The notes below the pieces were generated by a model that saw only the letters and a program-made list of their open reading frames with translations, did no database searches and was not told where the DNA came from. The position numbers and the translations under genes are program-made. From NCBI GenBank assembly GCA_017624835.1, contig JAGAMG010000046.1:45152-109151 (forward strand): a stretch of DNA of 64,000 nucleotides. Reading direction: 5' to 3'. Positions 5,260 to 7,393 of the stretch are shown here, in pieces (position 1 is the first letter of the stretch; every line of letters starts with the position of its first letter). Source of the stretch: Lachnospiraceae bacterium (GTDB lineage Bacteria; Bacillota; Clostridia; Lachnospirales; Lachnospiraceae).

Positions 5260-5858
5260 TTAAAAATATTATTTTTGATATAGGAAATGTATTGGCAGAT
5301 TTCAGATGGAAGGAATTTCTGCAGGATAGGGGCTTTGATGAGGAAATGGTAGCGCGCATTGCCAAAGCTTCGGTATTAAGCCCGGTATGGTTTGAACTGG
5401 ACAGAGGAAAATGGACGGATGAGGAAATCCTGCAAGGCTTTGTGGATGCAGACCCGGAAATTGAAAAAGAATTGCACCTTGCCTTTGATAACGTGGAGGG
5501 TATGGTTACTATCAGGGATTATGCCATTCCCTGGCTACAGGAGTTAAAAGCAAAGGGTTTAAAGGTCTGGTATCTATCCAATTTTTCCCGCAAGGCAGAG
5601 AGGGATTGTAAGGAAAGTCTGGCATTTTTGCCCTATATGGATGGAGGGATTTTATCCTATAAGGAGCAGCTGATTAAGCCTGATGCAGCTATTTATGAGC
5701 TTTTGCTTGAGCGCTATGGGTTGGTGGCAGAGGAATGTGTTTTTCTGGATGATACCCTGCCCAATGTGGAAGCAGCCAAGGCTTTGGGGATTCATGGGAT
5801 TCATTTTACCACCAAGGACCAGGCAGAAAGGGAACTTCGGGAGTTTGGGGTAAACTAA
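5256..5858 (+). CDS. HAD-family phosphatase
   Basis: Motif I IIFDIGNVL, LSN, KPDAAIY, FLDD; ATGA overlap with lysR stop. Confidence 0.9.
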   Translation: MIKNIIFDIGNVLADFRWKEFLQDRGFDEEMVARIAKASVLSPVWFELDRGKWTDEEILQGFVDADPEIEKELHLAFDNVEGMVTIRDYAIPWLQELKAKGLKVWYLSNFSRKAERDCKESLAFLPYMDGGILSYKEQLIKPDAAIYELLLERYGLVAEECVFLDDTLPNVEAAKALGIHGIHFTTKDQAERELREFGVN

Positions 5859-5878
5859 ATAAAACTCTGTGCCGATAT
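5851..5878 (+). promoter_or_regulatory. Putative sigma-28 (FliA/SigD) promoter
   Basis: TAAA (5851-5854), N16, GCCGATAT (5871-5878); -10 matches the SigD consensus exactly, spacer is one base longer than canonical. Confidence 0.65.
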
Positions 5879-5888
5879 ACATATCAGC

Positions 5889-6020
5889 TAAGGACAGCGT
5901 CTATTTTCAACGGATTGAACAGTTGGAGAAGACGCTGTTTTTGCGTAAAAAATAAATACCGCTTGGTCCTTTCAGGAAAGCGGTGCAGCCCGGAATGACG
6001 GAAAGGCTGCGGAAAGGAGG
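5889..6020 (+). promoter_or_regulatory. Structured leader with multiple GGA hairpins; first stem may act as a terminator
   Basis: Stems ACAGCGTCT/AGACGCTGT + T5, ACCGCTT/AAGCGGT, GCAGCC/GGCTGC; 8 GGA trinucleotides. Confidence 0.55.
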
Positions 6021-6024
6021 TAAA

Positions 6025-7326
6025 ATGCAGGTAAATGGCAGTGTAAGCTCGCGCTATACAGAAGTTTGGAAGCAAGACAGAACAGTACAGCGTGGCACCA
6101 GATTTGCTGAAATGGCAGGTTTGGATTTAGGTATTGATGCAGGGGCAGATGGTAATGATGCTCAGGCTGCAACAATGCGGTATGCCGATTCACGAGAGCT
6201 TTATATGGCACAAGCCGAGCAGGTAACCAATGTTGGTCTTGGCGATACGCGGGAGGCTGAGGGAGCTGTAACGGTAGCGGAGTCGGAGGAAAAAGGAGAA
6301 ATTTTAGGAATTACCATGGTGCCTGAGGAAGGGCAGTCCATAACCTATGGGGTGAAGGCTGTGCTCAGTGAGAAATCTACGGCAGCAAATCCTATCGTAC
6401 AGGTTGTCTCCAATCTGGGAGGGAAAAAGGTAGTAGTAAATGTTCAGATTAATAAGGTAAATCCAAGCTGTGCCACACAATTGGAAATGTTTGCCTTGCT
6501 CAGCTATACCGATAAAATGGGTATCACTGATGGAGGTACCTTTGGTTCATTTCACCAATTAAAGCTGTATGCTCAAAATGCCGCTTATAGGGGCTATTGC
6601 AGTGATTTATCGGGAGAGGATGCATTCTTAAATGAGAAGGTTGATTGGACGGAGATTCTGAATAAGATAATGGGAGATTATCTGGAAGCGGAGGCTTATA
6701 ATCAATATGAAGATTGTAAAAGGCTGCTGGATTATCTGACTACGGTTGTAGGAGAAAGAGAATCGGAGCAGGAAGAATCTCTGGCGGCATATAAGGAAAA
6801 GCTATTGCAGAAAATTCAAAATGGGGATACGGATACTGCTTATCGGATTGGTGCCCAAGAATATACAGAAAAACAATGGAAGGAATTTTTGGAACGATTT
6901 GATTCTGTTGAAGAAATGATGCGAGAGTTAATGCGTGAGCGTCACAAAAAGGAGCAGGAAAAAAGGGAAGAAAGAGAACGCCTGTTGGAGGAGGAAAAGC
7001 TCCTTACTGCTCAAACCACTGTCTGTACCTACCCCACAACGGACCCTACGGATGCAGACATCCGTTATATTACCTGGTATACCGAAGAAGGAATCTTTTG
7101 CAGAAAAGCAGGACAAACAGAAGGCTACGAATGGTCCATTGCTTTTGAAAATAAAGAGCAATATAAAAAGGTAACTGAATTTATCGCCCAATTCCCGGAG
7201 GATGGGAATCTGCGCTTTGCCGCTCATGAAAATTTTTGGATGGATTTTTTGAACAATGCAATTCCCATGGATGAATTTGTGAAATTCATAAAAGGAACCG
7301 ACAAGGGAGTGTTTGTCACCCCATAA
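6025..7326 (+). CDS. Hypothetical protein (multi-module, charged helical segment)
   Basis: Long ORF; ATG 6025 follows AAGGAGG; no signal peptide or catalytic motif recognised. Confidence 0.8.
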   Translation: MQVNGSVSSRYTEVWKQDRTVQRGTRFAEMAGLDLGIDAGADGNDAQAATMRYADSRELYMAQAEQVTNVGLGDTREAEGAVTVAESEEKGEILGITMVPEEGQSITYGVKAVLSEKSTAANPIVQVVSNLGGKKVVVNVQINKVNPSCATQLEMFALLSYTDKMGITDGGTFGSFHQLKLYAQNAAYRGYCSDLSGEDAFLNEKVDWTEILNKIMGDYLEAEAYNQYEDCKRLLDYLTTVVGERESEQEESLAAYKEKLLQKIQNGDTDTAYRIGAQEYTEKQWKEFLERFDSVEEMMRELMRERHKKEQEKREERERLLEEEKLLTAQTTVCTYPTTDPTDADIRYITWYTEEGIFCRKAGQTEGYEWSIAFENKEQYKKVTEFIAQFPEDGNLRFAAHENFWMDFLNNAIPMDEFVKFIKGTDKGVFVTP

Positions 7327-7393
7327 TCGTTGAAAAGAAAGAAGTTGTTTCCCTTGAAAACAGAGAAACAACTTTTTCAGGTTTTATTCTATT

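Follow-up and report, generated by a model that had tools for sequence, protein, structure and literature searches.

The DNA analyzed here, hereafter the window, is a stretch of 64,000 nucleotides (nt) from the genome of a Lachnospiraceae bacterium (GCA_017624835.1), the assembly of which is 84.8% complete and comprises 55 contigs. On its forward strand, a promoter of the sigma-28 type is followed by a leader of about 140 nt and by one gene, which encodes a protein of family PF27009 (DUF8329) and has its own terminator at ~7343-7383. This family occurs in Lachnospiraceae and is annotated as hypothetical only. Upstream of the leader lie a purF-like gene, a PAS-GGDEF diguanylate cyclase gene (1588-2916, between the purF-like gene and purA), purA, a LysR gene, and a HAD-hydrolase gene with its stop codon at 5856-5858; the -35 box of the promoter is located inside the last codons of the latter gene. 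The leader is built of two modules, A and B, and the comparisons described below indicate that module B is a paralogous copy of an RNA element that precedes the hook gene flgE across Clostridia.

An earlier note on this DNA, made from the sequence alone, had described a promoter, three hairpins, a T5 run, and eight GGA motifs in this region, and all of these features were recovered at the same coordinates. They are listed in Table 1 together with their conservation among related leaders.

Table 1. Features of the leader and its gene in the window, with the conservation of each among homologous copies
Feature	Position	Strand	Description	Conservation
sigma-28 (FliA/SigD)-type promoter	5851-5878	+	-35 TAAA at 5851-5854, 16-nt spacer, -10 GCCGATAT at 5871-5878	
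Conserved 5' word AGCUAAGGA	5886-5894	+		GGA at 5892 in 16/16 aligned copies; word in 22/22 matches
Module A, long terminator-like hairpin (hairpin 1)	5886-5944	+	Core stem 5894-5902 with 5930-5938; U5 at 5938-5942	
Module B, hairpin 2	5958-5984	+	Outer stem ACCGCUU/AAGCGGU, internal GGU, CC:GG pairs, loop UUUCA	
Module B, hairpin 3	5985-6010	+	Stem GCAGCC/GGCUGC, loop CGGAAUGACGGAAA	Family consensus of loop YGAMYGAC(A/G)GA
Extended Shine-Dalgarno sequence GGAAAGGAGG	6011-6020	+	Start codon ATG of the DUF8329 gene at 6025-6027	
DUF8329 gene (PF27009), regulated gene	6025-7326	+	433-amino-acid protein; monocistronic	
GGA	5892		5' word AAGGA	16/16
GGA	5912		Apical loop of hairpin 1	15/16
GGA	5925			Varies between homologues
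GGA	5975		Hairpin 2	14/20, the rest GGG
GGA	5992, 6000, 6011		Hairpin-3 loop and 3' flank	4-5/20
GGA	6016		Shine-Dalgarno sequence	15/20 (AAGGAG 6014-6019)

The promoter has the two boxes of a sigma-28 promoter, TAAA and (G)CCGATAT, at a spacing within the usual 15-17 nt, and fits the sigma-28 consensus of Lachnospiraceae, TAAA-N16-17-MCGATAa (PMC3720852); the transcript is expected to start at about 5885-5886. Taken alone, one such match is weak evidence, because the strict pattern is expected to occur ~3.8 times per genome by chance (167 -10 matches × P(TAAA) × 3 spacers) and has eight matches in this genome. The promoter becomes convincing because it is conserved at related loci. All 22 copies of module A, which were found with a model built without promoter sequence, have a CGATA -10 box in the 30 nt before them, at a distance of 7-24 nt. 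The same -10 box is also found upstream of copies of module B that occur alone, for example, at locus L059. This conservation indicates that the region is a real sigma-28 promoter, as the earlier note had proposed from the arrangement TAAA-N16-GCCGATAT. The cognate gene, fliA, which that note had wanted confirmed, is present (FliA_WhiG, 260.9 bits) at the end of the flhA-cheA-cheD operon on contig C3, and the fla/che operon is complete. The scanner detected no internal sigma-70 promoter in the gap between the first two hairpins, which is only 16 nt long. Two more well-formed sigma-28 promoters with short leaders were observed elsewhere in the genome, one (C20:96350-96377, minus strand) preceding a 210-amino-acid protein that has no Pfam family and begins MSVNGITS, the other (C26:2028-2055, plus strand) preceding a DUF6033 protein; the pair suggests a “dark” sigma-28 regulon.

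The 157-nt leader folds at -53.1 kcal/mol, with a z score of -4.2 versus shuffles. It is also rich in GGA: the eight motifs found in the 141 nt from 5884 to 6024 compare with 3.6 ± 1.35 in dinucleotide shuffles (P about 0.0015), and eight or more are seen in about 2% of genomic segments of this length. DNA and protein searches revealed the same leader before DUF8329 homologues in the genus, where the leader DNA is 80-87% identical versus 36-49% identity for the proteins of the same homologues. RNAalifold, applied to six full leaders, gave 31 pairs, of which 11 are compensatory. A covariance model of the whole leader had matches in 39 of 151 congeneric genomes, and inspection of these matches resolved two separable parts, module A being seen without B and module B without A. 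Composite leaders that carry both modules occur in other genera as well. Among genomes G046, G100, G073, G119, G142, and G083, several hold 3-7 leader copies, some just 1.5-6 kb apart on one contig, which shows that the motif-bearing genes form paralogous arrays.

Module B extends over 5958-6020 and abuts the Shine-Dalgarno sequence, the ribosome site being placed directly behind hairpin 3 in 15/20 homologous leaders. Its two hairpins are supported by covariation. Compensatory changes were observed at four of the six outer-stem pairs of hairpin 2, with 90% of the alignment cells paired, and at all eight pairs of hairpin 3, with 95% of the cells paired. For the module overall, 12/16 pairs are compensatory. 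The pairing CTTT-CAGG-AAAG (5969-5980) that the earlier note had drawn in this region is replaced by the covariation with CC:GG pairs inside hairpin 2. The segment UCCUUUC of this hairpin (5967-5973) has its complement, GAAAGGA, in the Shine-Dalgarno sequence.

The kinship of module B with the flgE leader emerged from searches with the module-B model (R3), which was built only from DUF8329-type leaders. Run on one genome per genus of the family, it gave strong matches before DUF8329-like genes, and the weaker matches were all located between a gene ending in ...VFTNIDGA... and flgE. The flgE leader of the present genome carries the element too (18 bits with R3; contig C3, L147:10568-10655, minus strand, outside the window). 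There it starts at the stop codon of a 138-amino-acid PF12611 “Flagellar_put” gene, and stem 1 includes the UAA, so that ribosomes finishing that gene must open the hairpin. With filters off, R3 located the element at the expected place and on the expected strand in 24/30 flgE loci from different Lachnospiraceae genera. In these flgE copies 90% of the cells are paired and 13/16 pairs are changed on both sides, with a covariation score of 0.494 versus 0.204 in shuffles and 0.05-0.12 when slid.

A search pattern taken from this alignment extended this distribution, matching 33 of 301 Clostridia genomes versus 2 for a reversed-pattern control. At least 26 of the 30 matches fetched (about 28 by reading) lie at the junction between the PF12611 gene and flgE, in many families. 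Scanned over the whole collection, the same pattern gave mostly chance matches outside Bacillota, with 21 of the 120 matches listed lying before flgE. Lachnotalea glycerini DSM 28816 and Eubacterium sp. MSJ-21 are among the genomes with the flgE-type element. Direct alignment of the two types of leader revealed the common motifs GGWCC...GG and GAMYGAC(A/G)GA. The flgE copies read GGACC in 23/24 cases and GACAGA in 19/24, where the window has GGUCC and GACGGA; the loop word of hairpin 3 is conserved in copies of both types, and the architecture of hairpin 2 is the same in flgE leaders. We conclude from this alignment, the shared structure, and the distribution of the matches that module B is a paralogous copy of the element before flgE.

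This element is apparently an undescribed RNA. No family of Rfam 15 matches either type, permissive scans of the region and of nine related loci giving chance-level hits only, and no published description of a flgE leader RNA was found in literature searches. The Termite-flg motif (RF01729) has no match in the whole genome at E values up to 10, nor in the scanned loci. A weak RsmY match (21 bits, E 0.27, well short of the gathering score) was observed upstream of a flgE locus in another genus (L163:2266-2350, minus strand) and is probably due to chance.

With regard to the gene products, proteins encoded behind module B start with the same pattern, M-x-[VIL]-[NG]-x-[VI]-x-S/G...Y (window 6025-6060; loci L049, L053, L059, L061, L073, and L136). 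In the ESM Atlas, DUF8329 lies near clusters of DUF4885 and of the Campylobacter “flagellar-dependent secreted protein” Cj0814 (score 0.94, a language-model lead only). The Cj0814-type resemblance and the similar N termini of the motif-bearing genes fit a set of sigma-28-driven export substrates.

Module A, the promoter-proximal hairpin, folds at -26.9 kcal/mol. The 16 aligned copies have folding energies of -14 to -27 kcal/mol, and each ends in a U-run of at least three U, five or six in most; a simple terminator scanner missed the hairpin on account of its internal loops. Pairing is maintained in 96.6% of the alignment cells, 6/11 pairs are changed on both sides, and the covariation score is 0.515 versus 0.206 in shuffles. 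Used alone as a model, module A gave its 22 copies in 19 of the 151 congeneric genomes, and the genes behind it are diverse and uncharacterized, including DUF8329, DUF4885, and others. At the apex, the mini-hairpin UUCAA-CGGA-UUGAA (5906-5919) presents NGGA (5911-5914) on the UUCAA/UUGAA stem or, alternatively, within a 10-nt loop. The GGA of this loop is kept in 20/22 copies, so the terminator-like first hairpin with its GGA loop, which the earlier note had pointed out, is indeed a conserved feature, as is the 5' AAGGA. The apical UUUCAA has two possible 3' partners (window 5903-5929), a proximal UUGAA and a distal GUUGGAGA, and this duplication, present in most copies, hints at a two-state apex.

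The stable G+C-rich stem of module A, with a U-run directly after it, has the form of an intrinsic terminator. No conserved antiterminator was detected for the module. A possible long-range alternative fold was noticed in which AAGGACAGCG of module A (5890-5899) can pair with CGCUUGGUCCUU of hairpin 2 (5960-5971) in 10 base pairs with a 2-nt bulge; it is kept just partly in relatives, and the partner segment 5960-5971 is transcribed only after the module A terminator. As for the 5' word AGCUAAGGA, it may form a helix with the U-run or serve, unpaired, as a GGA or Shine-Dalgarno-like site.

Several other assignments were considered and dropped. Module A is not a general sigma-28 or flagellin leader, given its 22 copies in 151 genomes and none before a flagellin gene. 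Reading of the frames by eye revealed no start codon suitably spaced from AAGGA for a leader peptide in module A. For the conserved loops, K-turn and hammerhead-like motifs were also weighed and abandoned, since their defining nucleotides are not matched.

We consider it moderately probable that this region is best described as a FliA promoter with a composite leader of two independently conserved modules before a monocistronic DUF8329 gene, in which module B, the copy of the flgE leader, mediates control read by a factor. This explanation starts from what the comparisons reveal, namely, the conserved promoter, two structures with compensatory changes, their modularity, and the kinship with the flgE leader, and adds a mechanism to them. 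Module B would adjust the translation or the local mRNA stability of the DUF8329 gene to the progress of flagellar assembly. A putative trans-acting factor is the likely route; it would read GGWCC...GG and GAC(A/G)GA, the unpaired nucleotides that do not vary, and a helix between UCCUUUC and the Shine-Dalgarno sequence may contribute. Module A, in turn, would probably be a leaky terminator and/or a 5' stabilizer that presents an RNA-binding protein with two GGA sites. Some of the transcripts should end at this hairpin, which is probably the terminator of the upstream operon as well and may serve as an attenuator, a stabilizer, or a protein-binding site.

Several observations weigh against this explanation. 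The complementarity between the loop of hairpin 2 and the Shine-Dalgarno sequence is present in 68-81% of cells but shows no compensatory change, and thermodynamic folding gives an unpaired Shine-Dalgarno sequence to begin with. On flgE leaders R3 scores only modestly (15-31 bits), and the flgE alignment (A7) was fitted to the model, which favors the structure. The DUF8329 leader has no upstream PF12611 gene, so the two contexts may work differently. Finally, a U5 terminator right behind the promoter would, if efficient, leave little mRNA, and no antiterminator alternative was found.

A broader version of this explanation is a possibility that we hold only tentatively. In it, module B and the flgE leader would form one RNA family with a dedicated flagellar factor or ligand. 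Across Clostridia, the translation of the hook protein and of a set of sigma-28-driven, probably flagellum-secreted DUF8329-type proteins would then depend on the state of the export apparatus, and module A would act as an attenuator driven by sigma-28, with two GGA sites that titrate CsrA or respond to it. If this CsrA-linked attenuator were real, it would be the first CsrA-linked RNA in Bacillota besides the flagellin mRNA.

The earlier note had read the whole leader as one CsrA device: either a CsrA-controlled switch or a terminated sigma-28 RNA of ~57 nt (~5885-5942) titrating CsrA, with FliW linking expression to flagellar assembly. We regard this as rather unlikely, although module A lends it some support. 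Its 5' AAGGA does not vary among the copies and its apical NGGA is conserved (Table 1), and the hairpin with its U5 has the look of a terminator. Similarity is seen between the loop CAA-NGGA-UUG and the word CUAAGGA, on the one hand, and the sites predicted for C. difficile fliC, BS1 TGACAAGGATGT and BS2 CTAAGGAGGG (PMC8523840), on the other, and there is a precedent in C. jejuni for an mRNA leader that titrates CsrA (PMC4894983). CsrA itself was found in 124/150 congeners and in 17/19 of the genomes with module A, but this co-occurrence does not discriminate, because 89% of carriers compares with a background of 82%.

Other observations speak against this proposal. Four of the eight GGA (5892, 5912, 5975, and 6016) are conserved, and four are not. 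Homologues that lack the GGA of hairpin 3 read UGA...GACAGA, and the selected sequence is UGAC(A/G)GA, the word of the flgE-leader family to which hairpins 2 and 3 belong. A GGA over the Shine-Dalgarno sequence, as in a BS2 site, is present as the earlier note had said, but any strong Shine-Dalgarno sequence supplies one. The counterpart of BS1, a conserved loop GGA in a hairpin by the ribosome site, is not seen, since the loop of hairpin 3 has GGA in 4-5/20 homologues at each of two positions and the conserved loop GGA (5912) lies 104 nt upstream of that in the Shine-Dalgarno sequence. This distance is beyond the span bridged by one CsrA dimer, which reportedly, in work by Mercante et al. from 2009, is roughly 10-63 nt. 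Flagellin genes of congeners, in contrast, have sigma-28 promoters with a distinct leader, in which a small hairpin with an AAGGAU or AUGGAA loop lies 12-20 nt before CAAGGAGGA, and they carry neither module A nor module B. The flagellin leader of the genus thus has the classic BS1/BS2 arrangement, matching the published pattern (PMC8523840). As a sponge, the putative 57-nt RNA has just two conserved GGA, whereas Csr/Rsm sponges are free-standing terminated RNAs with many loop GGA; no CsrB/Rsm family of Rfam matches the region.

The gene content of the genome bears on the same proposal. Whereas fliA is present, csrA and fliW were not found in this 84.8%-complete assembly, and neither were FlgM, FliS, and FlgL. 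Only a fragment of FliD was detected, cut off at the start of a contig (C45:289-486), where it adjoins an open reading frame resembling sigma-factor region 4. In a congener csrA adjoins flgL, and published Lachnospiraceae genomes have a flgM-csrA cluster (PMC3720852), so the late flagellar locus (flgM to csrA, fliC, and fliS) is most likely unassembled here. Since this whole locus is missing, the absence of csrA and fliW is uninformative. The only other carrier of module A that is negative for csrA, G004, is 97% complete, has no fliW match either, and likewise has no flgL match, which makes an assembly gap the likelier reason in both genomes. The sole Flagellin_N match in the assembly is a flagellin-like gene of 270 amino acids (C50:32476-33288, N terminus MSISGIQSQ), with a sigma-70-like promoter and a nonflagellar neighborhood. 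On balance, CsrA does not appear to be the organizing principle of the leader; its binding to the first hairpin is plausible, and it may bind module A within the composite leader that we favor.

Module A may also be viewed mainly as a 5' stabilizer, in which a 5'-terminal stem-loop and the Shine-Dalgarno-like AAGGA(G) would protect the transcript from 5' exonuclease with no specific regulator. Such 5' stabilizer hairpins and STAB-SD elements are found in Bacillota mRNAs such as aprE and cry3A. In 9/22 copies, AGCUAAGGA begins 7-8 nt behind the end of the -10 box, which would place the transcript start at the foot of the stem, where GC and AAGGA are paired to the U-run and GC. For the remaining 13, however, the promoter is farther upstream (12-24 nt), leaving a long single-stranded 5' end, and the conserved apical NGGA loop is left unexplained. 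Stabilization as the main role of module A therefore seems improbable to us.

For module B and the flgE leader family, a riboswitch was considered, that is, a two-hairpin pocket for a motility-relevant small molecule, such as a cyclic dinucleotide, that gates the ribosome site. Strongly conserved unpaired nucleotides in internal and apical loops, surrounded by covarying stems, are what such a pocket would present; the element stands directly upstream of the Shine-Dalgarno sequence, holds a 7-nt anti-Shine-Dalgarno-like word in hairpin 2, and is widely distributed. Flagellar operons of Clostridia are, moreover, known riboswitch targets, as illustrated by the c-di-GMP-I riboswitch before flgB in C. 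difficile. Nevertheless, the element is small (about 55 nt), with no multistem junction and no evident covarying expression platform, and it matches no known riboswitch class. The associated genes encode structural or secreted proteins and not the transporters or enzymes that would hint at a ligand, and we find a riboswitch quite improbable here.

Finally, the suggestion that the hairpins are passive, with hairpin 1 as the terminator of the purA/HAD operon (the fallback offered by the earlier note), the sigma-28 match as one of the chance matches expected in any genome, and hairpins 2 and 3 as generic stabilizing structure, would account for a hairpin 32 nt past the HAD stop codon with no other terminator visible, but it is highly improbable and already contradicted by the comparative data, because the hairpin travels with the promoter, following a sigma-28 -10 box behind unrelated upstream genes at 22/22 loci, its loop and 5' word are conserved in sequence beyond pairing, the invariant loop nucleotides of module B are common to flgE leaders across families, and the leader is better conserved than the coding sequence.

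To our knowledge, post-transcriptional control of flagellar assembly in Bacillota is known only for flagellin, via CsrA and FliW. Judged from these sequence comparisons, the window is a new context for an apparently undescribed flagellar leader RNA, together with a second conserved hairpin linked to sigma-28. What is new is the presence of the flgE-leader motif on a sigma-28-driven, nonaxial DUF8329 gene and the addition of module A. A conserved and uncatalogued RNA fold of the hook gene appears to have been copied onto sigma-28-dependent genes of uncharacterized proteins, which enlarges its putative regulon, and in Lachnospiraceae a conserved terminator hairpin with GGA stands at the beginning of some sigma-28 transcripts. 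With one promoter, a short leader, and one gene, the locus offers a compact monocistronic test case. The numerous gut Lachnospiraceae with these elements are a major source of immunogenic flagellin, and the timing of their flagellar gene expression is for this reason of practical interest.

Among known systems, the CsrA-FliW flagellin leaders of B. subtilis hag, C. difficile fliC (PMC8523840), and C. jejuni flaA (PMC4894983) resemble the leader in their sigma-28 promoter, in having GGA both within the Shine-Dalgarno sequence and in the loop of a hairpin, and in belonging to the flagellar regulon. They differ in the spacing of these sites, the loop GGA of the window being 104 nt from the ribosome site and not in a small BS1 hairpin near it, and in the regulated protein, DUF8329 here and not a flagellin able to bind FliW; CsrA is a candidate ligand only. 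CJnc170/FlmR, a FliA-dependent small RNA of C. jejuni that is encoded by a free-standing gene and base-pairs with flagellar mRNAs (PMC11187230), would be a precedent for a short sigma-28-driven regulatory RNA if module A terminates at its U-run. Module A, in comparison, forms part of an mRNA leader, and no target was identified for it. Like the 5' stabilizers and STAB-SD elements, it has a terminal or nearly terminal 5' stem-loop and a Shine-Dalgarno-like AAGGA near the transcript start, but its apical loop is conserved in sequence, its distance from the promoter varies, and the 5' end is not always in the stem.

The Termite-flg motif (RF01729; Weinberg et al. 2010, PMC2864571), reported solely from termite hindgut, is likewise a structured RNA from flagellar gene leaders that is a candidate for cis regulation, with no mechanism assigned. 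The closest relative is the two-hairpin RNA of flgE leaders, which module B resembles in architecture, in the GGWCC...GG of hairpin 2, and in the YGAMYGAC(A/G)GA loop of hairpin 3. An internal GGW, the CC:GG pair, an A-rich 3' side, and then the hairpin with this loop are all found in the window in that order. The flgE copies lie between a PF12611/TIGR02530 gene and flgE, with the stop codon of the former in stem 1, and are 29-119 nt from the start codon. The copy in the window has a HAD-hydrolase gene upstream and no stop codon of an upstream gene inside stem 1, it abuts the Shine-Dalgarno sequence of a nonaxial gene, and it is placed behind a sigma-28 promoter with module A preceding it.

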